Below, piece by piece: positions 31,347 to 59,526 of a DNA stretch of 64,000 nucleotides. The DNA lies in NCBI GenBank assembly GCA_018819405.1, contig JAHJQF010000001.1, forward strand, positions 753,469 to 817,468, in the 5' to 3' direction. The notes below the pieces were generated by a model that had not been told where the DNA came from, searched no databases, and was given only the letters and a program-made list of their open reading frames with translations. The position numbers and the translations under genes are program-made. Within the stretch, counting starts at the first letter, position 1; every line of letters starts with the position of its first letter. Source of the stretch: Patescibacteria group bacterium. GTDB taxonomy: Bacteria > Patescibacteriota > Patescibacteriia > UBA1558 > GWA2-36-10.

Positions 31347-31357
31347 AACCCCCTAAA

Positions 31358-31382: not shown

Positions 31383-31386
31383 AAAC

Positions 31387-31440
31387 TAAAAACCTCCCCT
31401 GTTAAGGGGAGGCGCCGAGCTTAGCTCGACGGAGGGGTTA
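31387..31440 (-). terminator. rpsI terminator (- strand), two hairpins
   Basis: On the minus strand, after the rpsI stop: CGAGC-taa-GCTCG, then CCTCCCC-ttaaca-GGGGAGG-ttttt. Confidence 0.65.
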
Positions 31441-36480: not shown

Positions 36481-36600
36481 TTGTCATTCTGAACTTGTTT
36501 CAGAATCTCTAATTTATTAGCCTTCATCATCTGGAGATGCCGAAGTACCCGCCTGCCATGAATACCGTCAGGCATGTCGGGCAGAAATTCGGCATGACAA
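36481..36600. repeat. hairpin repeat element copy 1 (TTGTCATTCTGAAcTTGtTTCAGAATC ... ATGACAA), 19 nt upstream of murB
   Basis: ~120-nt unit bounded by TTGTCAT / ATGACAA. Internal palindrome TTCTGAA-cttgt-TTCAGAA. Related copies at 41909 and 58844. Confidence 0.6.
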
Positions 36601-40891: not shown

Positions 40892-41915
40892 CTATCTTAT
40901 CAATTAGTATTATATAATCATTAACTGCGTTTTTTGGGAAGAGGCCTGACAAATTGCGACCCAAGCCAAGGCGCAACTCCTCTTTGGTCAAAATCTTGTC
41001 CAAATACCTATCCATAATCTGCGGATTGCCTTCGCGAACCATCAAAGAAGCATTACGCTTGGCCAAAAAGCTGGCATTTCTCTCCTGATGTGAATGCGGC
41101 ATGGGGATGAGTATCAAAGCTTTTTTTAAGGACGCGGCTTCTGAAATAAGCGACATCCCAGCACGCGATATTATAATATCAGCTTGAGACAAAAGATTGA
41201 CCATGCCCTGTTCTATGAATTTATAAGGAAGATAATTATCAAATTTTAATCTCTGATCCCAATTACTAGCGCCCAAGACATGATGCACTTCATAATACTC
41301 AAGCAGCTTGGGTACAAAAGGGGCTACAAACTTGTTTAGACCACGAGCACCAATTCCTCCGCCAGTAATCACTACTACAGGTTTTTGTCTGGTCTCTGTT
41401 TGATTTTCAATCGTCGGATTGCCAGTCACTACTACTTTGCTGTGCTTAAAATCTTTTTCCTGCTCTTTAAAAATCACACTAATTTTTTTGGCTACTGGCG
41501 CCATGAGTTTGTTGGCCAGACCAACAGTGATATCTTGCTGATGGACAATAACTGGCACTCTCAGCAACCAAGCAGCCCAAGCAACTGGCACGGCCACAAA
41601 ACTACCAGCAGTAAGTATAATATCTGGACGAAACTTTATAATTATTTTTATACTCTGAAAAAATCCTAATTTTATTTTGAAAATATCTACAAAATTCTGC
41701 CAAGAAAAATAGCGTCTAAGCTTACCACTTTTAATGGCTACAAAATCAATATTATGTTTAGCAATTATTTTTCTTTCTGGCCCATTTTCAGTACAGACAA
41801 AAAGATAATCAGCCAAATATTTGTCGGCTACTGCCAAAAGCGGACTGACTGAACCCAGTGTACCACCACCTGCTAATATTATTTTTTTTCTTTTATTTTC
41901 CATTTCTATTGTCAT
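40881..41915 (-). CDS. murG: UDP-GlcNAc:lipid I N-acetylglucosaminyltransferase
   Basis: GGGTLGSVSPLLAVA N-terminal motif and a C-terminal GT-B region. The first ATG coincides with the terminal ATGACAA of a repeat element, so an alternative start at MENKRKK (41903) is possible. Confidence 0.8.
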   Translation of the reverse strand: MTIEMENKRKKIILAGGGTLGSVSPLLAVADKYLADYLFVCTENGPERKIIAKHNIDFVAIKSGKLRRYFSWQNFVDIFKIKLGFFQSIKIIIKFRPDIILTAGSFVAVPVAWAAWLLRVPVIVHQQDITVGLANKLMAPVAKKISVIFKEQEKDFKHSKVVVTGNPTIENQTETRQKPVVVITGGGIGARGLNKFVAPFVPKLLEYYEVHHVLGASNWDQRLKFDNYLPYKFIEQGMVNLLSQADIIISRAGMSLISEAASLKKALILIPMPHSHQERNASFLAKRNASLMVREGNPQIMDRYLDKILTKEELRLGLGRNLSGLFPKNAVNDYIILIDKIVDK

Positions 41916-41990
41916 TCTGAATTTGATTCAGAATCTATATATTTTACTAAGATCCTAAAATAAATTCAGGACGACGAATTGATTTATCAA
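41909..41990. repeat. hairpin repeat element copy 2, overlapping the murG start codon
   Basis: TTGTCATTCTGAAtTTGaTTCAGAATC...AAATAAATTCAGG, with a divergent 3' end. Confidence 0.55.
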
Positions 41991-45599: not shown

Positions 45600-45947
45600 T
45601 TATAAAATATTATACAAATAAAAAAATAAAAAACTGTGGCAAATAAAAATGGTAAAAATCAAAAAATAACTCAGAATACGAAAACGGGTCCACAGAAAAA
45701 CTGCTAAAAATATGTTGATAAGAGCCAAGACTAAAAAAATACCCGGGATAATATAAAGCCAATACCAGTAGCCCAAAATATCAATACCAGAATATACATT
45801 GTAGTGCAAAACAGATAGTTGATCTCTGGCCACTTTTCTAAATAAAAACAAACTCCAGTTGGCTAAAATAGACAAAATAGAGACATTTATCAGCCAAAAA
45901 GCTAGTTTGTCTTTATATAAGACCTTAGCCGTACGTAGTATTGCCAT
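45600..45947 (-). CDS. hypothetical membrane protein
   Basis: 115 aa, 3-4 hydrophobic helices. Confidence 0.4.
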   Translation of the reverse strand: MAILRTAKVLYKDKLAFWLINVSILSILANWSLFLFRKVARDQLSVLHYNVYSGIDILGYWYWLYIIPGIFLVLALINIFLAVFLWTRFRILSYFLIFTIFICHSFLFFYLYNIL

Positions 45948-46046
45948 ATAATATATTTATTTTACCACAAAATACTATAAAAAACCACCCCGCTATTTCA
46001 GCAATTATCAACAAAAAAGTCAATATTTTAGATTGTTTATTTATCA

Positions 46047-46075
46047 TTGACAAAATTACTAAAATATGATATAAT
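46047..46075 (+). promoter_or_regulatory. consensus sigma70 promoter (island 2)
   Basis: TTGACA(46047-52), 17 nt (aaattactaaaataTGa), TATAAT(46070-75). Confidence 0.65.
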
Positions 46076-46163
46076 ATTACATTCTGAGCTTAAGTTTTGC
46101 TCGGAACCACCGCTCTCCACTTTGGAGGGCACGCACACTACAACACATTCGAGGAGGAGCCTC

Positions 46164-46835
46164 ATGGCCCAGCGCACGATTATCAAGCCGACCATCGAGA
46201 CCATCACCGATCTCAACCAGATCAAGCACAGCAAGCCCTGGCACATCCATACTCTCGAGAACATCGTCATCCTGCAGCGCCACTGGCCCCACACGGCCAA
46301 CGTCAGCCGGCGCCGGTACATCCGCCTGGCCCGCAAGATCGGTGCCATGATGGACTATCTGCCGCTCGCCTGCGCGATGTCGAGCCCCGAACCCCGCGCC
46401 ATCGAGGCGGCGCTCGCCTTCCAGAACAAGCACACCAAGCGCGTGCCGATCCGGACCGATGACCGCCTGGGTGCCTTGTCCGGCGCCGATCCCGAACTGC
46501 TGGCCCAGATCAAGGCCGGCGCCAAGAGCCTCGGCGTCACCCCCGAGACCTTCATCCTGGAGAGCGTCGAGCTCACCGACCTGCGCAAGCAGCGTGGCAA
46601 CGAAGGCGCCGAAGCGGTTCTGGAGATGGTCGACGGCCACATGGGCAAGACCTTCCTGGTCACCAGCCACGGTGGCTCGCGCCTGGAGCTCACGATCGCA
46701 GCGCTCGTCGGCCGCGATCAGTGTGGCTACCCCTGCCAGATGCCCGAGGGCGCCATCTGCTTCCTCAGCTTCGACGACAAGCAGAACATCAACTTCGAGC
46801 ACTACCTGGTCTTCGACAACCGCCTCCTCCGTTAG
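46164..46835 (+). CDS. histidine phosphatase superfamily (branch 1, PGM/SixA-like) protein, 223 aa, GC-rich foreign composition
   Basis: SD GAGGAGGAG sits 4 nt before ATG 46164. High GC3. Three ordered motifs: ILQRHWPHTAN (RH...N), AMSSPEPRAIEAALA (SSPxxRAxxTA-like) and FLVTSHGGSRLELTIAAL (VSHGG). The track ORF start at 46047 is the promoter TTG and was rejected. Confidence 0.5.
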   Translation: MAQRTIIKPTIETITDLNQIKHSKPWHIHTLENIVILQRHWPHTANVSRRRYIRLARKIGAMMDYLPLACAMSSPEPRAIEAALAFQNKHTKRVPIRTDDRLGALSGADPELLAQIKAGAKSLGVTPETFILESVELTDLRKQRGNEGAEAVLEMVDGHMGKTFLVTSHGGSRLELTIAALVGRDQCGYPCQMPEGAICFLSFDDKQNINFEHYLVFDNRLLR

Positions 46836-46863
46836 CCGCCCCTCATCGGCGGTTGACAAACAA

Positions 46864-46903
46864 GCGGCGGTTCGCAAGTGTGCGAACCGCCGCTCTTTCT
46901 TTT
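46864..46903 (+). terminator. rho-independent terminator (island 2)
   Basis: GCGGCGGTTCGCA-agtg-TGCGAACCGCCGC followed by tctttcttttg. Confidence 0.7.
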
Positions 46904-46986
46904 GCCAATTTTGCCCAAGAGTGTAACGATTGGTGCAAAATTGAGCATCCCGCGAAGCAAAGCAAAGCGGGATTTTTTATTTTTTA
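46899..46986. repeat. repeated terminator-like element, copy A (TTTTGCCCAAGAG..CGATTGG..GCAAAAT.GAGCATCCCGCGAAGC..GCGGGAT + T-run)
   Basis: ~65 nt is ~85% identical to 54421-54486. Ends in an ATCCCGC...GCGGGAT hairpin followed by ttttttatttttt. Confidence 0.6.
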
Positions 46987-47204
46987 GATTTCTTAAATAT
47001 CATAGCTGACAAAATAAAAGCAATGGTAAAAAATATTGCTCCATAAAAACATGGCTTCAAAAATGGATTGGTGATCCCCGGTGTACAGCCAAACTCATTA
47101 TTTTGATCAGCTAACCAAATTTTTAATTCGTAGCCAAAATTTCCCCAAGCAAATAATGTGCCTGCCAGTAGGATGTAAAATTGTGTGATAATTAATTTTT
47201 TCAT
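46977..47204 (-). CDS. small hydrophobic membrane protein (last gene of the PEP-utilizer operon)
   Basis: 75 aa, two hydrophobic helices, directly downstream of 47209..48666. Confidence 0.45.
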   Translation of the reverse strand: MKKLIITQFYILLAGTLFAWGNFGYELKIWLADQNNEFGCTPGITNPFLKPCFYGAIFFTIAFILSAMIFKKSKK

Positions 47205-47208
47205 TTGT

Positions 47209-48666
47209 TTATTTTAATCTTTTTATTATTCCCTGATTTGCGTCTACTTCTACTATATCACCATCCTTAAATACTTTTGTTGCAATTCTGGTGCCTATCA
47301 AACACGGCTTTTTCATTTCCCTGGCAACTATTGCCGCATGGGAAGTAATACCTCCTTGCTCTGTCACAAATGCTGCTGCTCGCTTCATAGCTGGTAATAG
47401 ATTAGGGTCAGTATAAATAGCCACCAAAATATCGCCCTCCTCTACTTTGTCTAAATCCTTGGGACCGTTGACTATTTTAACCACACCAGTCACTTTACCA
47501 AGAAAAGCCGCCTGCCCTTTGAGCTGATCACTGTCCTCTATCTTATCCTTAATAAAATCTTTCCTCAATATATCTAATTCATTTTTTGATAAAATAGATA
47601 ATTTGTCTGCCTCATAATACTGACAAAAAAAATCTTTTCTTTTTAAAATATTTTTATAATCAGACAAATTGCCAAATACTAAATCTTTGATTTCATCTTG
47701 GCCGGAATAATAAAAAGCGAGTTTTGGTATATCTAACTTTTGACTAAACTCCTCAAATAGTAGGTTTATCACATAACAAAAATAATATCTAATTCCTACA
47801 CGATAATTTTTAACATATGAAAAATCCCTAGCTACCGCAAAAGCAAACTTTTGATTTTTTTCCAATACTAATTGTTTTTCCAATTTTTCACGATCTTTTT
47901 TTATATTTAATAAATAGTCTTCATGTTCTTCTAGACTTTTGTCTGGATCTCCTTTGGATAATATTTCCTGAGCCCTTAAGACAAAATCATCTTCAGTCCA
48001 AGATGGCCCAATATATCCAAAGTTTATCCAATTATATTTTTTGGTATGTTTTTTAAATTCTATAGAATTTTTGAGATCTTCTATTTTTGAATATTTAACT
48101 AATAAAGCTATAAACTCTCTTTCTTCTTGCCAAAATATATTGGATTTTTCACTGGTAATCAGTTGATTTAATGTTTTAGAAATTTGATCCTGGCTGATTT
48201 TGTCTTTGAGAATATCTTCCAATCTGCTAGTCAAAAATCCGTGTTCTACATCACTTATTACTGCTACAAAACCTAATTCATTTAATTTTAAATAATTATA
48301 TACAACCTCATCAAACCAAATATTAAAATCGCTGGCTTTTAATTTACTAAAATCTTGTTTTATGATTTTGTCCAAACTACTTATTATTTTCTTACCATAA
48401 AACAAATGCTCATTTACCAAAGCATCTAAATCAAAAGTATTATTGAAGATATTATCAACTAATTTTGAACCCAGATTATTCCAGGCTGGCAAATCAGTAG
48501 CCCAATTGCCATCGCCATTTTCATAATAAACCAATTGATTTTTATAAGCTTTGCCCAGATATTTTTTTAAAATTTCAGAGACTGTAAAATCACGGCAAAT
48601 TGTCCACCAGACAAAATAATTAACTTCCTTTTCTTCAATTATTAATTTGAACTTGTTGTTTTTCAT
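47209..48666 (-). CDS. PEP-utilizing-enzyme mobile (phosphohistidine swivel) domain protein, paralog 1
   Basis: C-terminal ~90 aa: GKVTGVVKIV...GDILVAIYTDPNLLPAMKRAAAFVTEQGGITSHAAIVAREMKKPCLIGT...GDIVEVDANQGIIKRL (PF00391-like, His in TSHAAI). The N-terminal ~390 aa carries no recognised motif. Confidence 0.7.
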   Translation of the reverse strand: MKNNKFKLIIEEKEVNYFVWWTICRDFTVSEILKKYLGKAYKNQLVYYENGDGNWATDLPAWNNLGSKLVDNIFNNTFDLDALVNEHLFYGKKIISSLDKIIKQDFSKLKASDFNIWFDEVVYNYLKLNELGFVAVISDVEHGFLTSRLEDILKDKISQDQISKTLNQLITSEKSNIFWQEEREFIALLVKYSKIEDLKNSIEFKKHTKKYNWINFGYIGPSWTEDDFVLRAQEILSKGDPDKSLEEHEDYLLNIKKDREKLEKQLVLEKNQKFAFAVARDFSYVKNYRVGIRYYFCYVINLLFEEFSQKLDIPKLAFYYSGQDEIKDLVFGNLSDYKNILKRKDFFCQYYEADKLSILSKNELDILRKDFIKDKIEDSDQLKGQAAFLGKVTGVVKIVNGPKDLDKVEEGDILVAIYTDPNLLPAMKRAAAFVTEQGGITSHAAIVAREMKKPCLIGTRIATKVFKDGDIVEVDANQGIIKRLK

Positions 48667-50153
48667 AGTTTTTTAATTATTCCTCGGTCAGCATCCACCT
48701 CTATCATATCTCCGTCTTGTAAAATTTTAGTAGCAATTTTTGTCCCTACTACACAGGGAATATCCAATTCTCGAGAAACTATAGCTGCATGGCATGTAAT
48801 CCCCCCTTCATTAGTGACAATAGCAGTCGCTTTTTTAATTGCTGGCATTAAATCAGGGGTTGTAGCCTGTGATACCAGCACATCACCTTTATTCATTTTT
48901 TTCATATCTTCCATTTTATCTACAATTTTTACCCGCCCTTTTACCCGCCCTGCTTTAGCTGGCATACCTTTTATTTCTGATATATTTTTGTTTATTTTTT
49001 TATCTTCAGGAAACTCAAACAACTTCATTTTTTTGATTGCTGCCTGATCATAGTATTCCTCACGCTCGCCACTTCTATGAACAATCAAAAAATAATTAGC
49101 TATTCTTTTTTGAGCCAATGTTTTCAAATCTTTTTTATTTTCTATTTCATCTGAATAAAGATTCATAACTTCCAGAGTGGACAAGTTTAATCTTTCTCCT
49201 AGCTCTTTATAAATAAAACTAATATTATAACAAGCTTCCTGAAATTCATATTCTCTAATCCACTTATAATAACCAATATCAGCCACTAACTTAAAAATTC
49301 TTTCCTCCTGTTTATTAAGACCCAGTTCCGATACAGCCTTGACAAAATTATTCTGACTATATTCATCATAATTTTTTAGGTAGTCCAATCTTTTGAATAT
49401 ATTTGTGTTTAATTTCTCCAAAATCATATTGATATAATGATCCAAGTCCCAGCCCAACTCTCCAGCAAAATTGTAAGATAAATATCCGTGTTCTTGATGT
49501 ATTTGATTCAATTGATTTTCAAAATTATCCAAAATATCCTTAGCTTCTGCAAAATTTTTATCCTTGGCGATTTTGGCTAGCTCCAAAATTTTTATTTCCA
49601 AGTCTTGTGTCTTCATTTTATCCAATGGGCTAGTCAAATACATAAGATAATCAGCGAACCCGGACGGATTATCCTTGGTTTTATCTTTTAATATATTTTC
49701 CATTTGTTGATAAATAGGTGCCTGGTCAGTATAACCCATTAAAGTCGGCACCGTGCCGTATTTATAAAAATCAACAAACTTATTATCAAATTGGCGGCAA
49801 TAATCTACCAAATCACTTATATTTTTATCAGCCAAATTATTTTGCAAAATATTTTTTGTTAGAATATTCAATTCTTTGGCTTTTTTGTAAGCTGTTTTAA
49901 AAATATTATACAAGAAATCCGAATCTTTTTGCGAGCGCCTAAATAAATCGTCCATAGTACTTATTATCTCTTTCATGGAATAAATATAAGCTGAACGACC
50001 ATTTTGAAAAAAACTTATAGATTTCGTCATTTGATTGTCAGGAAAAACCTCGGTAAAATCTCTGACTGTCCCCAAACCAACTACATACATAAGATTTGGA
50101 GTGTATGGCCTGTCTTTAAAAATATAAATATATTGTTCTCTGTTTTTAGTCAT
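48663..50153 (-). CDS. PEP-utilizing-enzyme mobile domain protein, paralog 2
   Basis: GRVKGRVKIV...[41 protein letters not shown]...GDMIEVDADRGIIKKL. ATGA start/stop overlap with paralog 1. Confidence 0.7.
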   Translation of the reverse strand: MTKNREQYIYIFKDRPYTPNLMYVVGLGTVRDFTEVFPDNQMTKSISFFQNGRSAYIYSMKEIISTMDDLFRRSQKDSDFLYNIFKTAYKKAKELNILTKNILQNNLADKNISDLVDYCRQFDNKFVDFYKYGTVPTLMGYTDQAPIYQQMENILKDKTKDNPSGFADYLMYLTSPLDKMKTQDLEIKILELAKIAKDKNFAEAKDILDNFENQLNQIHQEHGYLSYNFAGELGWDLDHYINMILEKLNTNIFKRLDYLKNYDEYSQNNFVKAVSELGLNKQEERIFKLVADIGYYKWIREYEFQEACYNISFIYKELGERLNLSTLEVMNLYSDEIENKKDLKTLAQKRIANYFLIVHRSGEREEYYDQAAIKKMKLFEFPEDKKINKNISEIKGMPAKAGRVKGRVKIVDKMEDMKKMNKGDVLVSQATTPDLMPAIKKATAIVTNEGGITCHAAIVSRELDIPCVVGTKIATKILQDGDMIEVDADRGIIKKL

Positions 50154-50751
50154 TGAGCAAACTGGTCAAATATTTTCTAAAATCCTTAAAATTTTTATAC
50201 AGATAAGTATGAATACCCAGCTTCTTGGCATTTGGCAGATTAAAATACTGATCATCTACAAAAAATACCTCGTCTGCTTTGACTTTGTATTTTTTCAAGA
50301 CATACTTAAAAGTCTTAGCAGATCCTTTTGATAATTTTAGATCATAAGTGTTTATCAAATCAAAATGTTTTTTGAGCTGATATTTATTTACGACATATTT
50401 GAACTGACCGGTTGTATTTTTAGAAAGAAGTAGTATTTTATATTCCTTATTTTGAAGTGATTTAGCAAAATTAAAAACTGACTTATTGATATGTTGAAAA
50501 GAAAGATGTTTAGATCTAAATATTTTCCAATCTTCTTTCATACCAATTTCTTTGGCGGCTAGCTCAAAGGATTGTCTTTCAGTTATCTTGCCGAGGGATG
50601 CCGGAGTAAAATATTTGTGATAGACAATATCATAGCAAATATCAAAATCTATTTTGTATTTGCGACTAATCCACCGACAAGTTTCCTTGTAGCTGCCGAC
50701 ACTCATCACACCATATAGATCTATAATAATTAGCTTTATTTTTGGTTTCAT
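50146..50751 (-). CDS. HAD-superfamily hydrolase
   Basis: Motif I IIDLYGV (DxYG, haloacid-dehalogenase-like), motif II SKNTT, motif IV FFVDDQ. Confidence 0.55.
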   Translation of the reverse strand: MKPKIKLIIIDLYGVMSVGSYKETCRWISRKYKIDFDICYDIVYHKYFTPASLGKITERQSFELAAKEIGMKEDWKIFRSKHLSFQHINKSVFNFAKSLQNKEYKILLLSKNTTGQFKYVVNKYQLKKHFDLINTYDLKLSKGSAKTFKYVLKKYKVKADEVFFVDDQYFNLPNAKKLGIHTYLYKNFKDFRKYLTSLLND

Positions 50752-52178
50752 ATTTTTTTACAAAGTCCTGTTTTTATATCAATTTTTATTTTATCACCTG
50801 TCTTAAAAATTTTAGTTGCATTTTTTGTAGCCACTACACAAGGTATACCTAATTCACGAGAAACAATAGCAGCGTGAGAAGTAAGTCCTCCTTCATCTGT
50901 GACAATAGCTTTAGCTTTTCTCATAGCCACAATAAACTCCGGAGTAGTTATCGTAGTAATCAAAATTTCTCCTTGCTTCATTTTATTTATTTCTTTAATA
51001 CCAAACAATATACGAGCACGACTACTTACATTACCTCGGCCTCTGCTAATTACCAAACCTTTGACTGAATCAACTCCCTTAATAGTCTGTTCTGCTAAAA
51101 AAGGCTTGATAATTTTTAATGCCTGTTTCCCGTCTATGTGCTTATAACCGTTATTTTCTTTATAAATTGATAACAAGGCCATTTTCCTTTTTTTTGTATC
51201 AACAACCTTCCCTTTCTTAAGAAGAGTAATTAAATCAGGATAACTATAATAATATAAATCTTGGAGAGAAATTTTTAATCTCTTAGATATTTCTTTTATA
51301 AATTCATTTATAAAATAATCTGAAATAAGTATATACTGCTTGCGATAATCTTGCCACCACAAACAATATGCCACACCATTTGCTATTGATACAATTTCTG
51401 AATTTATTTTGAATTTTTTTATAACATTTTTTTTGTCGGATTTTATTTTTTTACTATAATTTTCAATTTCTTTTAATTTTTTACGAGCGCCGGCTTGTGA
51501 AATCTTACTTAATCTATTCTTAAAATATTTTTTATCTAATACTCTTACTTCAAAATAACTATTGGCCAGCCAGTAATATTTTTTGGCATGTCTTACCAGA
51601 GCAATTTCAATATCCTTTTTATTTTTAAGTAGTTTTATTTTCAATAGACTAAACTCTTCTTTTTGATAAAAAGACGATTTTTCTGGAGCTGGCAAGCTTT
51701 CTAAAATTTCCAAATAATTTTTTGGATATCTTTCCAAAACTTTATTTTTTAATAATCTTTCCCCTCCCCAGTTGCCAAGTTCCGGTAGCCATGATTTTAG
51801 CCAAAACTCTTCATAAAAATCATACCAGCTAATAAAAAATTTTATGAATTCCTTGTTAGAATAATTATCAAATCCTCTGTTTATTATTTTTTCATAATAA
51901 TTAAATTTTTTTAAAATTAAAATCCAATCTTTATATAATTTTTTTAACCTTTTTTTATTTAAGACATATTTTATAAATAATTTTTCTCCATTATCTCTCA
52001 ATTTTTTATCTTCGGCCAAAAATAAAAGTCGTTTATCTTTGAAATACAACAAAAAATCAGGCCAGCCTACACCAGCTATTTTTGGATATTTCTGAACAGC
52101 ATACATTGTGAGATCTGCATAAATAATTCTAGCATCTGCCGGTCCCCACCTAAATAATTCTTTTTTATAATCTACCAT
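50748..52178 (-). CDS. PEP-utilizing-enzyme mobile domain protein, paralog 3
   Basis: GLVISRGRGNV...[41 protein letters not shown]...GDKIKIDIKTGLCKKI. Confidence 0.7.
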   Translation of the reverse strand: MVDYKKELFRWGPADARIIYADLTMYAVQKYPKIAGVGWPDFLLYFKDKRLLFLAEDKKLRDNGEKLFIKYVLNKKRLKKLYKDWILILKKFNYYEKIINRGFDNYSNKEFIKFFISWYDFYEEFWLKSWLPELGNWGGERLLKNKVLERYPKNYLEILESLPAPEKSSFYQKEEFSLLKIKLLKNKKDIEIALVRHAKKYYWLANSYFEVRVLDKKYFKNRLSKISQAGARKKLKEIENYSKKIKSDKKNVIKKFKINSEIVSIANGVAYCLWWQDYRKQYILISDYFINEFIKEISKRLKISLQDLYYYSYPDLITLLKKGKVVDTKKRKMALLSIYKENNGYKHIDGKQALKIIKPFLAEQTIKGVDSVKGLVISRGRGNVSSRARILFGIKEINKMKQGEILITTITTPEFIVAMRKAKAIVTDEGGLTSHAAIVSRELGIPCVVATKNATKIFKTGDKIKIDIKTGLCKKI

Positions 52179-53010
52179 TTTTCTTTTGATTTATCATAGC
52201 TACCAACCACTTTATATGAAATTCAAAATCTTTTTCCGTGCGGCTATTATCTTCATAGTAATGAGATAAACCTAACTTAGTACCAATTAGCAACTTACCA
52301 CCAGAAGCTAAAATCATCCTAAACATCTGATTACCGACCATACCATTTGGTGGAATCAATAAATTATAACCTTCTTCTATAGCTATATTTGAATCAATAG
52401 ACCAATTTTTGACAATTAATCTTTCTTTGTTTAGTTTTTTTACTATCCACTGGGCGTCAGAATAAGTTTTGTTTAACTTGGCAACAATACCACTTTTTAT
52501 ATTTCTTTTACGCTTATAAGTATCATGCCTTACTCCGCTGAGCACACAAATTCTAGGTTTAATATTAAACCCTATCATCATATTGGCCGTAATAAGTGCT
52601 TTAGAAAAACGATCTTCTTTTGTCCAAGCCTCTGGATTACTGACAAAAGCAATAAAAATTTTATTTTTATTGGGCAGCTGCATTAACACAGGATTAGCTA
52701 ATGTATTTTCTCCTGTTAATTTTCTGTAAACTTCGTAAGTTTTAAAATCATCAATTGTTCCTCTTACCATTCCTTCTACCTCTCCATTTACCAACATTTC
52801 CACCAATTTCTTTTCGGGATTATTACTAATATTTAATTTGAATCCTTTTATACTGCTTATTTTCTTTGGACCAACAATATTAATATCCGCATATTTATGA
52901 GATTTTCTTAAACTGGTTAAAATGAGCTCATCAGGTTTATCAAGGCCAAAAGCTATTTTAGGATGTCGTAATTTTAATAATTTTTCTATTTTTTGGTCAA
53001 ATTTATCCAT
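52165..53010 (-). CDS. phosphate acyltransferase family protein (Pta/Ptb-like)
   Basis: LVEMLVNGEVEGMVRGT (compare Pta GEADGMVSG) and a C-terminal LLIPPNGMVGNQMFRMILASGGKLLIGTKLGL resembling the PTA_PTB C-terminus. Confidence 0.5.
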   Translation of the reverse strand: MDKFDQKIEKLLKLRHPKIAFGLDKPDELILTSLRKSHKYADINIVGPKKISSIKGFKLNISNNPEKKLVEMLVNGEVEGMVRGTIDDFKTYEVYRKLTGENTLANPVLMQLPNKNKIFIAFVSNPEAWTKEDRFSKALITANMMIGFNIKPRICVLSGVRHDTYKRKRNIKSGIVAKLNKTYSDAQWIVKKLNKERLIVKNWSIDSNIAIEEGYNLLIPPNGMVGNQMFRMILASGGKLLIGTKLGLSHYYEDNSRTEKDFEFHIKWLVAMINQKKNGRL

Positions 53011-53013
53011 ATA

Positions 53014-53526
53014 TTATCTTTTAAACAAATTTTTAAAAAATTCAGTCCTGTCCACATTGGCTACATGAGTAAACCATTCATCTTGAAATTTGTAAGCCAA
53101 GATAAACAACCAAATCCAGACAATATTTTTCTTGTACCACTGGGCTGTCTTTTCCCGCCCTTTGAACAACTCGGCTGTAGCGTAAATTAAAAATAATGGT
53201 TCTACCAGATTAGGAAAATAAAACAGCATCATTTCATCGCGAGTAAAAAAGAAAGAAAATTGTCCGATTGTCCTAATCAAAAATGTGACAATGACTTCTT
53301 TTTTTATCACTCTCTTCCAGCCCCAAATAACTATAAAAATATAAGTAGTATAATCAGCTATTTTATCTATTAATTGATATTTTTTATCTTCCAGTCCCAG
53401 AGGAATAAGTATATCTCCATCTACTGAGTCCAAAATAAAATTGGCCCAGCCGGCAAAAAATGGAAATTTCAAAATCAAAACCGGGAAGGCAAATTTTAAT
53501 AATATTATTAAGACTATAAAAAACAT
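53014..53526 (-). CDS. CDP-alcohol phosphatidyltransferase-like membrane protein
   Basis: LDSVDGDILIPLGLEDKKYQLIDKIAD approximates the D-G-x2-A-R...G-x3-D-x3-D motif. Several TM helices. Weak. Confidence 0.35.
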   Translation of the reverse strand: MFFIVLIILLKFAFPVLILKFPFFAGWANFILDSVDGDILIPLGLEDKKYQLIDKIADYTTYIFIVIWGWKRVIKKEVIVTFLIRTIGQFSFFFTRDEMMLFYFPNLVEPLFLIYATAELFKGREKTAQWYKKNIVWIWLFILAYKFQDEWFTHVANVDRTEFFKNLFKR

Positions 53527-53548
53527 ATACTATATATTTATTAAAAAT

Positions 53549-53833
53549 TTAAACCGCCCGAACTTCTTTTACCTCGGGCATAGCCCCTCTGATTTCTGCT
53601 TCTATCAAATGCTTTAGAGTCACATCAGCTAAAATACAGTGAGCACAAGCGCCTTGTAGTACAATCTCTACAATCCCCTTTTTCTTGTCATAACTCACTA
53701 GTTCCAAATTGCCATTGTCACGCATCAAAGCCGGACGAATACGATCTAGTATTTTATTTAATTTGTCCTCATCACTGAGTTTTTTTGACGCGGCCTTAGG
53801 CTTTGCCTTGGCTTTTGTTTTTGCTTTTGGCAT
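53549..53833 (-). CDS. NifU-like (Nfu) Fe-S cluster scaffold domain protein
   Basis: ILDRIRPALMRDNGNLELVSY...GACAHCILADVTLKHLIE (CxxC). Lys-rich N-terminal tail. Confidence 0.7.
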   Translation of the reverse strand: MPKAKTKAKAKPKAASKKLSDEDKLNKILDRIRPALMRDNGNLELVSYDKKKGIVEIVLQGACAHCILADVTLKHLIEAEIRGAMPEVKEVRAV

Positions 53834-53837
53834 ATAT

Positions 53838-53912
53838 GTAAATTTACCCTGTTAAATATTTTGCCCCGCAAAATACTGCTTTGCAGTATTTAACAGGGTG
53901 AATTAATTTTTA
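53838..53912. repeat. palindromic intergenic element (ACCCTGTTAAATAtt..gc ... gcAGTATTTAACAGGGT); a partial copy at 63521-63553
   Basis: ~17-bp inverted repeat around a ccccgcaaaatactgc core. A 25/26-nt match (TTTAACrGGGTGAATTAtTTTTATA) occurs at the 3' end of the partial rmlB. Confidence 0.5.
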
Positions 53913-54389
53913 TAAAAATTTTTAAACTGACTTATTATTTCTTCTTCACCGTTATTATTATATAAAGTATAGCAGTCTATCTTTGGTTCTTCAAATATTT
54001 TTTCTAGCTCATCAGCATATTTTTTGGATACAAAATGCTGTCTACCAACAAGACGTTTGGCCATTATATCTTTATCAGCCTTGAGTAAAATAAATTTTGC
54101 TTCTGGAAAATTGTCCAACATCATTTGACGAAACTTTTCTTTTATAAAAGCTTGACTAACAATTATATTTTTATATTTTGGTTTTAATTCATTTATTTTA
54201 GCTATAACAATGTTATAAAAATCTTCTCTGTTCTTATCAGTGGCTATATCATTTTTTTTTAATTTTGTCTATCAAATACTGAGGAATATCGCTATCAGCA
54301 TCATAATGATAAAAATCAAAATTTTTGGCTATCACATCGCCCACAAAATTTTTGCCTGCGCCAGGTTGTCCAAATAGAAATATGATCAT
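53903..54389 (-). pseudogene. gluconokinase/GntK-family P-loop kinase, interrupted by a +1 frameshift in an A9 homopolymer (coding strand) at 54252-54260
   Basis: N-terminus MIIFLFGQPGAGKNFVGDVIAKNF (Walker A) runs from 54389 to the A-run and stops after KKK. Removing one A restores a 162-aa ORF joined to the track ORF 53903..54124 (...ILLKADKDIMAKRLVGRQHFVSKKYADELEKIFEEP, GntK-like). Confidence 0.6.
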
Positions 54390-54424
54390 AATTTCTTTAT
54401 TATACCATTATTGGCATCAACTTC
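54386..54424 (-). pseudogene. 13-codon remnant of a PEP-utilizer paralog C-terminus (...[13 protein letters not shown]), stop overlapping the kinase ATG (ATGA)
   Basis: 45 nt nearly identical to the 3' end of 55854..57194 (…[13 protein letters not shown]). Upstream of this the sequence becomes repeat element B. Confidence 0.55.
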
Positions 54425-54486
54425 TGCCGATTTTGCCCAAGAGCGCAGCGATTGGCTGCAAAATCGAGCATCCCGCGAAGCGGGAT
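54421..54486. repeat. repeated terminator-like element, copy B
   Basis: CTTCTGCCGATTTTGCCCAAGAGCGCAGCGATTGGCTGCAAAATCGAGCATCCCGCGAAGCGGGAT. Homologous to 46899-46973. Contains the ATCCCGC-gaa-GCGGGAT hairpin. Confidence 0.6.
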
Positions 54487-54495
54487 ATAGCTATT

Positions 54496-55857
54496 CTAAT
54501 GCTTACTTAATTTTTTAACTATGCCGCGGCTAGCGTCTACCTCAACCATATCGCCATCTTTTAAAACTTTAGTAGCATAATTAGTACCAATTATACAAGG
54601 CTTTCCCAATTCCCTTGAAACAATAGCCGCGTGACAAGTAATGCCGCCTTCATCGGTAATTATAGCAGCAGCTTTTTTCATTAGAGGTACATATTCCGGC
54701 CTAGTCATACCTGTCACTAGTATCTCGCCTTTTTTAAAACTCTCTGTCTCTAAAAATACATTGGTAATAATTTTTACCTTGCCCTTGGCGTATCCAAGAG
54801 AACCCGACTGTCCTATTATTTTATTATCAAACTGATAATCTGTTCCAATATTATCATAAAATCTATATTCAAATTTTTTTGCTCCATCAGGGTATAACAA
54901 AACTGAAAAACCATTTTTCCTTTTTGCTATTTCTGTAATATTACTTCTTAAATATTTTGTCCCTTTTTCTATTTCCTCAAACAAACAAAAATTTATCAAA
55001 TCTTTGGACAGATTAGCCGTCTCAAAAATATGTTCGGCATATCGACCCATGATTGACAGAAGCATGCCAAAATAATCTTTTCTCTGATCACGCTTGTCTA
55101 TAGCCCATTGAAAAAAATCAGTCATTCTTCTCTCCTTTTCAGATAAATCATTTTTCCAACTAGTACTTTTGCCGTTTACTTTTTTATGTATTAATAAATT
55201 TTTATACTTTTCTTGTAGTTGTTTTTTAGTAAACTCAAAACTTAATATCCGGTCATAGGCTGCCTCCAAATACTGACATTTTTCAGTTATTTGATCCCAA
55301 TTATAATCTGCCTCCACTAATCTCTTTAATTTTTTTGATCCGCGATCATAAAAAGATTCCGTATTTAAAATTGAAGCCTTGTTCCAGAAAGAATCGTCTA
55401 GCTTACCAAAACGATCAAATACATCTTTATCTAAACCAATAGTAAAAAACGTCAAAGCACTCAAACTCCAAGCATTATCAACTATGCTATTTAAGTCTTC
55501 TCCTAAATCATTATTATTTTTTATATATTTATAAGTTAATTTACTATAAATATTTTCTATCTTTTGAGAAAACTTTTTAAAATTATCCTCCATTTTAGAC
55601 AAATGTTTTTTGTCTTCCCAAACCGAATACATTGTTTCCAAACAAGCTGCTTTTGAGTGACCTAAAGAAATATACATTAGACCAATATCTCCTTTGACCG
55701 AAATTAATAAAGGAAAAGAATAATTATTTTTATAAAGAGATCTAAAATATTTACTCTGATTCCACCCCCGTGTTTGATATATCAAAGCTGAATTCAAAAT
55801 AGGAGGAGATATCTCTAAACCATCTTGAGCTTTTAAGTATAAATCAACAATACTCAT
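54496..55857 (-). CDS. PEP-utilizing-enzyme mobile domain protein, paralog 4
   Basis: [10 protein letters not shown]...[49 protein letters not shown]...[16 protein letters not shown]. Confidence 0.7.
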
Positions 55858-57194
55858 AATTTCTTTATTATACCATTATTGGCGTCCACCTCTACCATAT
55901 CACCATCTTTTAAAACTTTGGTAGCATAATTAGTACCAACCACACAGGGCACTTTTAGCTCACGACTGGTTATGGCGGCGTGAGAAAGCATACCACCTTC
56001 ATCAGTCACAATAGCCGCTGCCAGACGCATGGCTGGAGTATAACGCGGATCAGTCATTTGAGCGACCAATATATCCCCCTTTTCAATTTTTGAAATTTCT
56101 TTATAAGAATTAACAATCTTAACTTTACCCTTAACTACGCCCCTCGTAGCTGATATGCCTTGAAGCTGATCAATATAATTAATTTGTTTTTTGACAATTT
56201 GTTTTATCTTTTCTATCTGAACTTTATCTGTGACAATATTTAATGACCCATCATAGTAATAAAGAAAGTTTTTCTCTCTTTTGGCCAAGTCAATTGCCTC
56301 AGGTAATTTAGCTTTGGTTAAAATGTCTTCAATTTCTTCATAGCTCAAATTCGCCACTGCTTTTAAACTAATATTTTCAAATTTATCCTTAAGATACTCA
56401 AAAAATCTACTAATAATAAACAAACTATGTTTCCAAGAATCCACACGATCATTTCTTAAAAATATATATTCATGAAATAATATGCATTTGGCTTTTATTT
56501 CTTCATCGTCTAGCTTGGAAATAAAATTATCAAACTCTTTTTTATGTCGAGAAAATTGAGCAAATATTTTTTCTACCTTATCTCTATCCAGCTCTTTGGA
56601 CATCTTCTCTAACTCCTCAATAGTATATATTCCCTCACCAATGTAATAGCTTTTTAACCAGCCGTACTTTTCCAAGGCCATTTGTGGCCCTTCCTCCAAA
56701 AGCATTTTTTCCATCAATTGATACTGAGTCGGTTTATCAGAGTTAATAATTTTTTCAAAATCTTCGGGGAACAACCTAATTAGCTCCGGCTCGGCATATT
56801 CTATCAAAGCAAAGGGTATAAGGATGTAATCAAAAAAATCATAAACTGAGGAAATGTAATTTTTAAATAATACAAAAAGTTCTTTATCCGATACCTTGCC
56901 TACTCCCTGAGATAATATTTTCGAACTCTCCAAAATTCTGTCCCTGGCCGGAATATAATCAGTCAAATGACTCTTGTAGTTTGATAATACTCTTTGGTAA
57001 GTTTTTTTTAAAACTTTTTTATATGAAGGCTCATCAAAATAATATGAACCCATCACACCATCCTCTTCTGGTATGACCACAAAAAATTTCATACCAGCAT
57101 CATAAATTGCTTTTAGATAATAAAATTCTCTGGCTATACCATAAGGACGGGTAGCCCATTTAAAAAATTTGTATTTGAAAAATTTATCTTCCAT
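55854..57194 (-). CDS. PEP-utilizing-enzyme mobile domain protein, paralog 5
   Basis: [11 protein letters not shown]...[49 protein letters not shown]...[20 protein letters not shown] overlap with paralog 4. Confidence 0.7.
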
Positions 57195-57912
57195 TTTTCC
57201 TTAATTTAGCAATAGTGTTGCCAGCTTCCAGTAAGGCATCAAAAGTACCCGTATCCAACCAATAATGATCATATTTTTTGACATCAAGTTGCCCCTCTTT
57301 GAGATATAGATTGTTGATATCGGTAATTTCCAATTCTCCTCTGGCTGATGGCTGGAGACTCTTGGCTTTGTCTACCACAGTATTATCATAAATATAAAGC
57401 CCAGTTACCGCAAAATTGCTCTTTGGCTTGGTTGGCTTTTCTTCTATAGAAATTGCTTTGCCACTAACATCAAACTCTACTACACCAAATCTATTGGGAT
57501 CAGGCACTTCTTTAGCAAAAACACGACCACCTGATTGAAAACTCCTGATAGCCTCATCAAGAAAATCACCGTCACCGACAAACAGGTTGTCACCAAGTAT
57601 CAAAGTAACGTTGTCGCTACCTACAAAATTTTCTCCTAGTAAAAAAGCCTGAGCAATGCCCTCTGGTTTATCTTGCACTTCATAAGTGATCTTGACGCCA
57701 AAATCTTTGCCACTAGCCAGCAACTTGGAAAATTTGTGAATATTGTCCGGATCAGAGATTATCAGTATATCTTTGATACCACCGTCAATGAGAGTCTCTA
57801 AAGGATAATAAATCATCGGCCTATCATAAATTGGCAAGAGTTGTTTTGATGTCACTTTAGTAAGTGGATGAAGTCTAGTGCCGGCTCCGCCAGCAAGTAT
57901 AATTCCTTTCAT
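57184..57912 (-). CDS. rmlA: glucose-1-phosphate thymidylyltransferase
   Basis: MKGIILAGGAGTRLHPLTKVTSKQLLPIYDRPMIYYPLETLIDGGIKDILIIS. Start placed at MKG (57912). The track's upstream extension to 57951 runs through the inverted-repeat element. Confidence 0.75.
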   Translation of the reverse strand: MKGIILAGGAGTRLHPLTKVTSKQLLPIYDRPMIYYPLETLIDGGIKDILIISDPDNIHKFSKLLASGKDFGVKITYEVQDKPEGIAQAFLLGENFVGSDNVTLILGDNLFVGDGDFLDEAIRSFQSGGRVFAKEVPDPNRFGVVEFDVSGKAISIEEKPTKPKSNFAVTGLYIYDNTVVDKAKSLQPSARGELEITDINNLYLKEGQLDVKKYDHYWLDTGTFDALLEAGNTIAKLRKNGR

Positions 57913-57927
57913 ATAGTTTATTGTTGC

Positions 57928-57995
57928 GTCATTGCGAGCGTAGCGAAGCAATCTACAAGCTTTTGGATTGCCACGCCCTTCGGGCTCGCAATGAC
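57928..57995. repeat. 12-bp inverted repeat GTCATTGCGAGC...(44 nt)...GCTCGCAATGAC between rmlD and rmlA
   Basis: Perfect 12-bp arms. Shares GTCAT...ATGAC termini with the TTGTCAT..ATGACAA family. Lies 16 nt upstream of the rmlA start. Confidence 0.55.
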
Positions 57996-58004
57996 ATTTT
58001 TAAT

Positions 58005-58838: not shown

Positions 58839-58843
58839 TTATT

Positions 58844-58915
58844 TTGTCATCCTGAACTTGTTTCAGGATCTAGCTAATAATTAATGGAGATGCTGAAATA
58901 AATTCAGCATGACAC
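58844..58915. repeat. hairpin repeat element copy 3, 6 nt upstream of the rmlD start
   Basis: TTGTCATCCTGAACTTGTTTCAGGATC...GCTGAAataaatTCAGCATGACAC. Confidence 0.6.
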
Positions 58916-58937
58916 TATTTTAACTTAATTTTTTATA

Positions 58938-58966
58938 TTGACATTTTTATCTAAATATGATATAAT
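58938..58966 (+). promoter_or_regulatory. consensus sigma70 promoter (island 3)
   Basis: TTGACA(58938-43), 17 nt (tttttatctaaataTGa), TATAAT(58961-66). Confidence 0.65.
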
Positions 58967-59020
58967 CATACAATATTCGTTCCGCCTTGACAACACCAAT
59001 CTTAGGGAGGTTTCCAAGAA

Positions 59021-59461: not shown

Positions 59462-59479
59462 CAAATCCTTCGACCCTTA

Positions 59480-59523
59480 CGAGGTCCGTTCGCGTTTATA
59501 CGCAACTGGCCTCGTATTTTTTT
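59480..59523 (+). terminator. rho-independent terminator (island 3)
   Basis: CGAGGTC-...-GGCCTCG stem with an inner GCG/CGC stem, followed by tattttttt. Confidence 0.55.
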
Positions 59524-59526
59524 AAA

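Follow-up and report, generated by a model that had tools for sequence, protein, structure and literature searches.

A gene of 64.7% GC lies in a genome of about 35% GC, which raises the question of whether it was inserted recently from a high-GC donor or belongs to the lineage that carries it. The locus was analysed within a stretch of 64,000 nucleotides from a contig of a Patescibacteria group bacterium, called the window below. The original prediction described a GC-rich cassette with its right insertion junction at 46898/46899, beside one copy of a repeat. The features of the locus are collected in Table 1, and related loci are numbered L001–L097.

Table 1. Features of the cassette and its surroundings in the window.
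Feature	Position	Strand	Details
115-aa membrane ORF, left neighbour	45600–45947	−	last gene of the murD-mraY block
Consensus sigma-70 promoter	46047–46075	+	TTGACA (46047–46052), 17-nt spacer, TGaTATAAT (extended −10; TG 46067–68, TATAAT 46070–46075)
Leader hairpin 1	46082–46106	+	5′-proximal, UUCUGAGC...GCUCGGAA, at or adjoining the inferred TSS
Leader hairpin 2	46112–46130	+	CUCUCCA-CUU-UGGAGGG
Unstructured C/A-rich spacer, then Shine-Dalgarno	46131–46163	+	GAGGAGGAG at 46151–46159, 4-nt gap, ATG at 46164
CDS, branch-1 histidine-phosphatase-fold protein, type b cassette	46164–46835	+	223 aa (46164–46832, stop codon 46833–35), MBU1203198.1
3′-UTR 13-mer	46853–46865	+	TTGACAAACAAGC, by direct reading; same letters in the leader of the L006 cassette
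Intrinsic terminator	46863–46904	+	hairpin 46863–46894, 14-bp stem (10 G-C), 4-nt loop, T-tract, CTTTCTTTTG downstream
Two-hairpin repeat, 65–70 nt, copy A	46899–46968		outside the cassette; copy B at 54421–54486
75-aa small membrane protein, conserved	46977–47204	−	convergent with the cassette
PEP-utilizer (phosphohistidine swivel) C-terminal-domain protein	47209–48666	−	first of eight paralogues
PEP-utilizer paralogues 2–4	48663–50153, 50748–52178, 54496–55857
PEP-utilizer paralogues 5–8	55854–57194, 59527–61056, 61053–62057, 62054–63511

The promoter scored 12/12 against the consensus and has the extended −10 TG, as predicted. It was the sole perfect site within 44–49 kb. With the extended −10 included, the window contained 8 sites with at most two mismatches against 1.59 expected, and none of 100 shuffles reached 8. 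The three sites with 0–1 mismatch (30441, 46047 and 58938) are all on the + strand, each with a GC-rich ORF downstream. The promoter was kept in the orthologous cassettes. The leader had been put at about 75 nt; it is present, and its length is approximately 82 nt if transcription starts near 46082. The fold of the whole leader had a z-score of −3.2. Hairpin 1 recurs in L001, L002a/b, L006 and L032, where the stem varies at two pairs, one compensatory (G-C versus A-U) and the other a U-G/C-G change. Hairpin 2 takes the position of a CCCTAG-N4-CTAGGG hairpin in the orthologues. The strong Shine-Dalgarno sequence four nucleotides before ATG was found where predicted. The expected GC hairpin terminator follows the ORF, its stem one pair longer than the 13 bp claimed. 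This terminator is common to L006 and L032, with covariation in the middle of the stem, and 18 nt at its 3′-end are identical to L006. The 13-mer shared with the L006 leader may be left over from recombination among cassettes. Rfam gave no match in the window at gathering thresholds and no credible match at E ≤ 1 for the leaders of seven related loci. These elements would make the locus a monocistronic unit consisting of a consensus promoter, a two-hairpin leader, a C/A-rich spacer, a strong Shine-Dalgarno sequence, the ORF and a strong terminator.

The predicted motif blocks RH(W)xxxxN, SSPxxRAxxxA and VTSHGG are present in the order described, as R39-H40-W-P-H-T-A-N46, S73-S-P-E-P-R78-A and V166-T-S-H169-G-G. 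The length of the ORF was also as predicted, and its GC content had been underestimated at about 62%. The protein matched PF00300 over profile positions 33–185 (E 5.3e-5, 23.4 bits, just over the cut-off of 21.7), and a family profile of 20 sequences matched dPGM in the PDB with an E of 7.8e-9. In the alignment, RH, SSPxxRA and SHGG correspond to R10/H11, R62 and H184 of dPGM. An AF2 model built from the 20-sequence alignment (pLDDT 93.6, pTM 0.91) replaced a weak model from a 2-sequence alignment (pLDDT 60.6), and the top 50 Foldseek matches were all branch-1 enzymes, agreeing with the predicted superfamily. The closest by structure were the phosphatases PhoE, PspA and CobC; these structural neighbours include phosphatases of proteins as well as of small molecules and do not point to either substrate class. 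R39, H40, R78 and H169 were invariant in the 20 family members. The gene is real, and its product is a divergent protein of the branch-1 histidine phosphatase superfamily that is catalytically plausible. It represents a new small subfamily within a well-known enzyme superfamily. Long antisense ORFs such as 46077–46877(−) were rejected as by-products of high GC, as the original prediction had also held; homologues and a Pfam match were obtained for the + frame alone.

The protein departs from the classical enzymes in several respects. The Gly of the RHG motif is replaced by Trp. The RLxE proton donor is Glu83 in PhoE and Glu89 in dPGM, and the equivalent position here is Ala104 (DDRLGAL versus DERLREI). 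The family consensus at this position is Asp, and type b proteins have Ala or Ser, so hydrolytic activity is not assured. Glu175, which is invariant in the family and lies in the family-specific motif SHGGSRLE, or D99/D100 might serve as a substitute proton donor. The AF2 model shows a helical insert at residues 105–156 and an N-terminal extension of approximately 30 residues with an extra strand. Identity as dPGM was rejected: no NCBIfam PGM model matched, and 11 residues that follow the RH motif in dPGM are missing here. The suggested likeness to SixA and PGM holds for the superfamily fold; the SixA analogy is weak, and membership of the SixA family was rejected, since the protein has 223 aa with inserted helices and matched no SixA NCBIfam model even at E ≤ 10. 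No NCBIfam equivalog matched the protein at all.

The family is tiny, with 97 representatives among 1.84 billion, and a homologue search with the single protein returned only itself and one Logan protein. Three paralogous cassette types, a, b and c, were distinguished. Type a proteins (155–164 aa) are degenerate, with LHG in place of RHG and scores below the PF00300 threshold. Type b (218–224 aa) includes the window cassette. Type c (185–194 aa) is SixA-sized, carries RH..K and FHDP motifs, and occurs in L006, L032 and L086. A local jackhmmer search of 80 loci found no additional type a or type c members. A search with the 20-sequence profile, limited to 8000 candidates, scored just 7. A GTDB scan with peptide patterns drawn from the four closest proteins (the 20-sequence alignment is too diverse for pattern derivation) found no relative and no family member in GC-rich genomes. 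The metagenome locus L003 was discarded as a false lead; its genome is GC-rich and its match overlaps a LysR-type regulator. No cassette protein matched PADLOC or PHROGs, tblastn against phage and plasmid sequences gave no match, and the homologue search with the cassette-3 protein returned nothing besides the query.

Six cassettes in five related loci (L001, L002, L006, L032, L087) have the same promoter, two-hairpin leader and terminator, and those of L001, L002 (two), L006 and L032 are orthologous. The nhmmer models of promoter-leader and terminator found the module in the six training sequences only (window, L001, L002a/b, L006, L032). L086, with three cassettes, and L087 lay outside that search and were judged by direct sequence reading, which showed the same architecture. 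The related cassettes adjoin the same small membrane gene, or PPDK_N/PEP-utilizer genes where the contig extends that far; the 75-aa membrane protein served as synteny anchor across 80 Patescibacteria loci. The 115-aa membrane ORF has a 119-aa counterpart in L006, L086 and L087, and its distance to the cassette is shorter in the window than in these three loci. The same cassette was found at the same site or neighbourhood in at least six related genomes (L001, L002, L006, L032, L086, L087).

The two repeat copies showed 86–89% identity, and their homology starts at approximately 46899, which agrees with the predicted limit. No copy was found among loci L001–L097, cassette loci included, so the repeat is a later addition. 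The reading of this limit as an insertion junction is not supported, given that related cassette loci have no repeat. The claim that the cassette displaced whatever followed the repeat is contradicted by the same architecture at the site or neighbourhood in L001, L002, L006, L032 and L087. On the comparative evidence, it is the repeat, and not the cassette, that is the lineage-specific addition.

L087 and L006 share 90% identity in PPDK_N, in the promoter and leader hairpins, and in the small membrane gene. Between these stretches, the type b cassette of L087 and the type c cassette of L006 had no similarity; the breakpoints fall within the leader and downstream of the terminator. For L001 and L002, identity was 77–82% in the flanks and 90% in the terminator, and the ORFs were 65% identical in DNA and 41% in protein. 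Replacement of the ORF by repeated foreign acquisition was dropped as an explanation; all three types coexist as paralogues in L086, and the swaps are therefore explained by differential retention or recombination. No integrase was seen among the ORFs inspected around the locus. These comparisons show modular swapping, and on the favoured reading cassettes are gained, lost or exchanged through recombination inside the shared leader and terminator modules.

The base composition follows the transcription unit. GC1/2/3 of the CDS were 0.62/0.41/0.91, compared with a GC3 of 0.25–0.34 in host genes. GC rose from 0.14–0.22 upstream (0.14 for 46047–46081) to 0.54–0.65 inside, and was 0.25 after the unit. 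The GC-rich zone coincides exactly with the transcription unit, UTRs included, whose promoter is AT-rich and of host type. Cassette GC3 was 0.56–0.91 versus 0.16–0.33 in the neighbours in 11 of 12 loci, and A made up only 2–9% of cassette third positions in genomes of 33–39% GC. Identity at four-fold sites between orthologues with a GC3 of 0.76–0.91 was 0.36–0.57, against 0.36–0.49 expected from base composition, on just 45–51 sites per pair. The gene is old in the lineage because synonymous sites are saturated between orthologues. From these comparisons, the cassette is old and swappable and not a fresh insertion.

A recent horizontal insertion from a high-GC donor beside the repeat, with its composition not yet ameliorated, would account for the sharp GC step at both edges, the high GC3 and Arg-rich amino-acid usage of the ORF, and the end of repeat homology at the terminator. 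It is difficult to reconcile with the cassette in at least six related genomes, with the lack of the repeat at all related cassette loci, with saturated four-fold sites at a GC3 that stays high, and with the confinement of the GC-rich zone to a unit under a host-type promoter. The locus also lacks tRNA or direct-repeat borders and, among the ORFs inspected, an integrase; searches of plasmids and phages gave no homologue, and with L003 set aside GC-rich genomes yielded no member of the family. This reading is largely refuted, and we give it very little credence. An assembly chimera, in which reads of a GC-rich organism were mis-joined into an AT-rich contig, would explain the extreme compositional contrast and nothing else. 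Independent assemblies (NCBI MAGs, JGI metagenomes, Logan runs) show this architecture again, bordered on either side by AT-rich sequence, and the probability of a chimera is practically negligible.

The cassette's GC-richness is retained across related lineages. Codon preference of highly expressed genes was rejected as the cause on the GC3 of rpsI (0.255), codon-level selection alone on the GC-rich UTRs, and transcription-associated deamination because it would lower GC. We tentatively suggest, with less than even confidence, that the high GC is kept up actively within the limits of the transcription unit and is a hallmark of the family across many Patescibacteria lineages, which would point to a gene-specific compositional force not known to have been described for these organisms. 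One candidate force is selection, in a strongly expressed head-on accessory regulon, for mRNAs that are A/U-poor, resist nucleases or are translated in a special way; another is GC-biased conversion tied to the type-swapping recombination of cassettes. An unseen pool of GC-rich genes, if it kept exchanging with the cassettes, would give the same picture as maintenance. If maintenance is true, one general class of compositionally insulated expression cassettes would take in the window's cassettes at 30.4 kb and 58.9 kb together with the unrelated GC-rich ORFs that occupy this site in other lineages (L035).

The cassette abuts PEP-utilizer genes, as predicted, and the adjoining array holds eight paralogues with PF00391 swivel domains. 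For the 485-aa neighbour, the PDB alignment of greatest length (residues 278–482) was with 5fbs/5hv1, structures of the Listeria rifampin phosphotransferase. Related loci encode a stand-alone PPDK_N protein (PF01326), and in L004, L006, L086, L087 and L092–L096 PPDK_N and PEP-utilizer genes flank or adjoin a member of the family; the sequence of L097 ends before the domain of the flanking gene can be assigned. The window cassette has PEP-utilizer genes beside it and no adjacent PPDK_N gene. The window showed no partner of the PTS, NPr or two-component kind. The association is correlative, and from it we infer the link to the PEP-utilizer proteins.

We consider it probable, taken as a whole, that the locus is an inherited, self-contained and exchangeable cassette whose product is the likely phosphatase partner of the neighbouring phosphotransferases. 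The cassettes would be an old inherited part of a conserved Patescibacteria neighbourhood with the putative order (dcw genes), PPDK_N ATP-grasp, cassette(s) on the opposite strand, small membrane protein, and PEP-utilizer swivel-histidine proteins. The enzyme would most likely take off the phosphoryl group placed by the ATP-grasp and swivel-histidine phosphotransferases, and may act either on the phosphorylated product of these enzymes or directly on the phosphohistidine of the swivel domain.

Two other functions were weighed. The first is a phosphatase or mutase of general metabolism (phosphoserine, sugar-phosphate, alpha-ribazole-phosphate or PGM-like), which would lie near the PEP-utilizer genes only incidentally. 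It is suggested by the helical insert; metabolic branch-1 enzymes have cap subdomains at this position. Against it, the PPDK_N/PEP-utilizer placement recurs in several divergent lineages, no equivalog matched, and a family this small, patchy, fast-evolving and swappable is unlike a housekeeping enzyme. We regard a metabolic role as unlikely, though with appreciable weight. The protein could also be a non-hydrolytic phospho-acceptor, phospho-carrier or pseudo-enzyme, with His40 holding a stable phosphoryl group from the swivel His~P, or could only bind or regulate. Ala104 at the acid position in type b fits this role, as do the LHG motif and sub-threshold PF00300 score of type a, which indicate that the paralogues tolerate loss of catalytic residues. 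The four invariant core residues speak against it, and the invariant E175 and D99/D100 are putative proton donors; we consider a non-hydrolytic role improbable.

The favoured reading, a phosphatase partner, has wider meaning. Recurrence beside stand-alone PPDK_N and amplified swivel proteins suggests that phosphotransfer enzymes, which form a large and uncharacterised expansion in the reduced genomes of Patescibacteria, have a phosphatase partner, and this hypothesis is testable. The locus is also a compact case of modular gene exchange, with different paralogues set between identical breakpoints in near-identical genomes. High GC despite saturated synonymous sites is not predicted by standard amelioration reasoning, and a compositional outlier need not mean recent transfer.

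Among known enzymes, PhoE/YhfR of Geobacillus stearothermophilus (1h2e/1ebb), PspA, CobC, RosC and GpgP have an equivalent RH nucleophile, second Arg and second His. The PhoE-type cap-bearing enzymes are of similar size and also have a helical insert. Identity to them is only 15–21%, and the present protein differs in RHW for RHG, a loop from RHG to the helix that is about 11 residues shorter, the N-terminal extension and extra strand, Ala104 for the catalytic Glu, and SHGGSRLE with its invariant Glu. The substrates of SixA include the HPt domain of ArcB. The cassette protein shares with SixA a context rich in phosphohistidine enzymes and differs in size (223 versus about 160 aa) and in the helical insert, which SixA lacks. 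SixA (PDB 1ujc) dephosphorylates NPr and Ndk (PMC7948535, PMC6282199, PMC12934123). Given the shared context of phosphohistidine enzymes, a SixA-like dephosphorylation of protein His~P would be plausible here.

The neighbouring system has ATP-grasp and swivel-His parts in common with rifampin-phosphotransferase and PEP-synthase enzymes. Here, the two parts are on separate proteins, the swivel protein has multiplied into eight paralogues, and no PEP/pyruvate-binding C-terminal domain was found; the known systems are not known to include a dedicated histidine-phosphatase partner. In composition, the cassettes resemble the lgr ("large G+C-rich") genes of Protochlamydia amoebophila, a paralogous family with G+C well above that of its lower-GC genome (PMC2216083). 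According to the abstract of that paper, these are unrelated LRR proteins in a different organism, and it describes no conserved promoter-leader-terminator module.

Integron cassettes and other arrays of single-gene cassettes offer a parallel to the single-ORF modules that closely related genomes exchange here at a fixed chromosomal site with conserved structured borders. An integron-type cassette was ruled out here by the consensus promoter and intrinsic terminator that each cassette has for itself and by the lack of an integrase among the inspected ORFs; the integron ORF is promoterless with a 3′ attC and lies beside an integrase and attI, and no attC-type site was identified. The cargo at this site is always a paralogue of one family, and the exchange resembles homologous recombination between leader and terminator modules.

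The GC-rich zone at the target gene coincides with its transcription unit. GC content was 34.9% across the window, in which three sharply delimited GC-rich islets stood out, near 30.7–31.5, 46.1–47.0 and 59.0–59.5 kb. Along the target unit, GC was 0.22 in the upstream intergenic region, 0.14 in the promoter, 0.54 in the 5′ UTR, 0.65 in the ORF, 0.635 in the 3′ UTR and 0.25 downstream. The ORF itself had 64.7% GC (GC1/2/3 = 0.62/0.41/0.91). The target promoter was the sole perfect one within 44–49 kb. The scan of the window for extended −10 promoters showed 8 sites with at most two mismatches against 1.6 expected, a number reached by 0/100 shuffles. Sites with 0–1 mismatches occurred only at 30441, 46047 and 58938, all on the + strand and each 5′ of a GC-rich ORF.

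Coordinates of features in the window and in related loci (L handles)
Feature	Position	Strand	Description
Target promoter	46047–46075	+	TTGACA, 17-nt spacer, TG-n-TATAAT; 12/12
Target ribosome-binding site	4 nt 5′ of ATG 46164	+	GAGGAGGAG
Target ORF	ATG 46164 to stop 46833–46835	+	223 aa, identical to NCBI MBU1203198.1
13-mer in target 3′ UTR	46853–46865		TTGACAAACAAGC
Target terminator	46863–46904	+	14-bp hairpin, then T-tract
Second GC-rich cassette	30441–31340	+	TTGACA-17-TATAGT, extended −10, 1 mismatch
Second-cassette ORFs	30571–30780; 30803–31288	+	69 aa, hydrophobic; 161 aa
Odd GC-rich repeats	about 31340–31440		between second cassette and rpsI
Third GC-rich cassette	58938–59515	+	perfect extended −10 promoter, 146 aa, hairpin terminator
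About 65-nt two-hairpin repeat	46899–46968 (A); 54421–54486 (B)		ATTTTGCCCAAGAG...TTGG.TGCAAAAT, then ATCCCGC...GCGGGAT
43-nt fragment	54386–54428		adjoins repeat copy B
About 31-nt inverted-repeat element	36481–36511; 41909–41939; 58844–58874		TTGTCATTCTGAACTTGTTTCAGAATCT; three copies, at gene ends
Eight swivel-domain paralogues	47209–63511	−	334–509 aa
HAD hydrolase	50146–50751		interleaved with paralogues
Nucleotidyltransferase-like	57184–57951		interleaved with paralogues
RmlD-like reductase	58005–58838		interleaved with paralogues
Type a copies	L002 252–719; L086 5652–6146
Unrelated GC-rich ORF	L035 10392–11057	−	221 aa
Type IV secretion/conjugation-like genes	L004 1814–2969; L092 1957–5030		PrgI, TraC-like, TraG/DUF87 ATPase
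AT-rich histidine-phosphatase-like paralogues	L006 2221–3108; L092 8661–9557; L004 6670–7566		about 295–298 aa
Region at the P0005-clade member	L092 about 7520–7818		also in L093–L096

The target protein is a divergent branch-1 histidine phosphatase. It scored 23.4 bits against PF00300 (curated cut-off 21.7), matching profile positions 33–185 only. The HMM search of 1.84 billion representatives recovered 97 relatives, three of them close. R39, H40, P75, R78, T98, G161, H169 and E175 were invariant in an alignment of 20 sequences, whose profile matched dPGM structures (E 8e-9). In this alignment R10/H11 of dPGM matched the family RH, R62 matched SSPepRA and H184 matched SHGg; relative to dPGM, the family has an 11-residue deletion following the RH motif. 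AlphaFold2 gave a pLDDT of 93.6 and a pTM of 0.91 with the 20-sequence alignment and a poor model with a 2-sequence alignment. The Foldseek top 50 for the target model were branch-1 enzymes (50/50). The original prediction had the fold right, and its promoter, SD, GC-rich ORF and hairpin terminator are all present. One defining family feature fails: the acid position of 'RLxE' is Ala104 in the target protein and Asp in the wider family consensus. With this residue changed, phosphatase activity is plausible, not assured; E175 or D99/D100 may take the place of the missing acid. The target gene is a new subfamily and a variant of a known superfamily.

Related DNA was collected by exact-protein look-ups, a metagenome scan and a GTDB scan anchored on the 75-aa membrane protein encoded next to the target; the last gave 80 Patescibacteria loci. 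Many related contigs were short. TTGACA-17-TATAAT with an extended −10 element preceded every cassette of L001, L002, L006, L032, L086 and L087. Every related leader forms two 5′-proximal hairpins, followed by a C/A-rich spacer and a GGAGG-type SD, and the unit is closed by a GC hairpin terminator. Hairpin 1 showed one compensatory pair among cassettes. Among the relatives, CCCTAG-N4-CTAGGG forms hairpin 2; in the window a hairpin of different sequence occupies the equivalent position. The cassette leader matched no known RNA family. The target gene comes as part of an expression module that is both conserved and exchangeable.

Cassettes, gene neighbourhood and GC3 of family genes in the window and related loci
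Locus	Cassettes	Neighbourhood	Family gene GC3	Neighbour GC3
Window	type b		0.91	0.25–0.34
L001	one, type b	small membrane gene downstream, as in window	0.885
L002	two tandem, types a + b	small membrane gene as in window, then PEP-utilizer gene	0.79 (L002a), 0.91 (L002b)
L006	one, type c	membrane protein 79% identical; flanks 75% identical (DNA)	0.90
L032	one, type c	adjoins small membrane gene	0.76
L087	one, type b	PPDK_N upstream, small membrane gene downstream	0.79	0.19–0.28
L086	three, types a, c, b	common neighbourhood: PPDK_N + PEP-utilizer genes	0.56–0.65	0.16–0.22
L092			0.82	0.27–0.32
L005			0.90
L089			0.73	0.43
L088			0.58	0.29
L004			0.34	0.20–0.31

The original prediction took the cassette as an insertion with its right junction at the boundary of the 65-nt repeat, and suggested that it had displaced what followed the repeat. 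The repeat had 0 copies in L001–L097 and two in the window alone, which argues that the repeat, not the cassette, is the local addition. A fresh insertion of the cassette was rejected, since cassettes stand in six related loci, none with the repeat. The proposed insertion junction is wrong, and displacement of prior sequence is unsupported. The 43-nt fragment next to repeat copy B matches the 3′ end (55854–55896) of a PEP-utilizer gene with 91% identity, as might be expected of a small mobile element or a truncated paralogue. One copy of the 31-nt element lies just 5′ of the third GC-rich cassette.

Cassettes were of three paralogous types: a (155–164 aa, LHG replacing RHG, below the PF00300 threshold), b (218–224 aa, the type in the window) and c (185–194 aa, with RH..K, SP..RT.ET and FHDP motifs; 24.3 bits against PF00300 in L006). 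All three coexist in L086, each with a separate promoter, leader and terminator. L087 (type b) and L006 (type c) shared 90% DNA identity from PPDK_N across the intergenic region and promoter through both leader hairpins, and again in the small membrane gene; between these flanks similarity was undetectable. The flanks of L001 and L002 were 77–82% identical and their terminators 90%, and their type b ORFs only 65% (DNA) and 41% (protein). The 13-mer in the window 3′ UTR exactly matches part of the L006 leader. The simplest reading is an ancestral cassette array in which recombination between common leader/terminator modules would delete, retain or replace cassettes. Type a proteins, in which CTGRPF also replaces the second-His motif, are probably catalytically dead histidine-phosphatase-fold proteins; they retain the strong promoter, leader and terminator common to cassettes.

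Two other GC-rich cassettes were found in the window. The second had a GC3 of 0.75–0.77 and a leader without significant structure (z = 0.08), and its ORFs had no match in Pfam, NCBIfam, PADLOC or PHROG. The third (GC3 0.80, convergent with a PEP-utilizer gene) encodes a protein with the RapZ C-terminal domain PF22740 (34.3 bits, cut-off 27), named 'RNase adapter RapZ' at NCBI, and a search of 5.8 billion proteins returned only itself. Its leader motif TTGACAACACCAA also occurs in the L032 type c leader. In L035, a 37% GC locus from another Patescibacteria lineage, an unrelated ORF (GC3 0.81, no Pfam match) directly follows the small membrane gene at the site equivalent to that of the target cassette, a hint that this site hosts GC-rich cassettes with varied cargo.

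L004 was the sole locus with family-gene GC3 near background. The canonical RHGES paralogue adjoining the family member in L092 had a GC3 of only 0.27, so the GC bias is specific to the target family. Third-base identity of orthologues, taken over the few four-fold sites whose residue is conserved (45–51 per pair), was 0.36–0.57 versus 0.36–0.49 predicted from base composition; synonymous sites are therefore essentially saturated, and GC3 is still high in every lineage. Family third positions were C 0.44–0.60, G 0.30–0.38, T 0.07–0.16 and A 0.02–0.09. Most of the 97 representatives were Arg-rich with GC-leaning amino-acid usage, R/(R+K) being mostly about 0.45–0.7 versus about 0.2 in host proteins. 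Codon preference linked to high expression was ruled out as the cause by the GC3 of the ribosomal-protein gene rpsI (0.255), and codon-level selection alone is insufficient because the cassette UTRs are GC-rich too. The persistent high GC3 may stem from ongoing exchange with a GC-rich gene pool outside the sampled genomes. The GC-richness of the family is conserved and looks maintained.

All eight paralogues beyond the target carry PF00391, a phosphohistidine swivel domain, at the C terminus; their N-terminal regions vary and had no Pfam match. For the first, the alignment with 5fbs/5hv1, structures of rifampin phosphotransferase, extends past the swivel domain. Inspection of part of the window revealed no PPDK_N gene. 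In L004, L006, L086, L087 and L092–L096, a PF01326 PPDK_N ATP-grasp gene of the stand-alone kind adjoins a family member encoded on the opposite strand, and in L004, L086 and L092–L095 a PEP-utilizer gene stands on the family member's other side. This layout recurs among members only 27–45% identical and thus supports a functional link. Defence-system, phage and plasmid links of the cassette proteins were searched for and none were found.

Type IV secretion/conjugation-like genes directly adjoin the PPDK_N/histidine-phosphatase/PEP-utilizer module in two lineages, those of L004 and L092. The AT-rich paralogues (RHGES or GRHE motifs; GC3 0.20–0.27 in the L092 and L004 copies) adjoin the GC-rich family member in L092 and L004 and lie one PPDK_N gene apart in L006, so two related enzymes of opposite codon composition share one neighbourhood. 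The P0005-clade member has TTGACA-17-TATAAT upstream and an unusually long leader (about 300 nt), GC-rich, apparently structured and without an Rfam match; its gene is flanked on both sides by the GC-rich palindrome GCAGGCGCGAATTC..GAATTCGCGCCTGC.

Judged from gene context, the target protein is most likely a phosphatase opposing split ATP-grasp/swivel-His enzymes, reversing the phosphorylation they carry out. Its target would be the product of these enzymes or else the swivel His~P. Removal of phosphate from a protein His~P has a precedent in SixA (PMC7948535, PMC6282199, PMC12934123). The structural neighbours of the target protein did not separate small-molecule from protein substrates. The eight swivel paralogues appear to correspond to that half of a split phosphotransferase which binds substrate and carries the swivel domain, the whole enzyme resembling rifampin phosphotransferase or PEP synthase.
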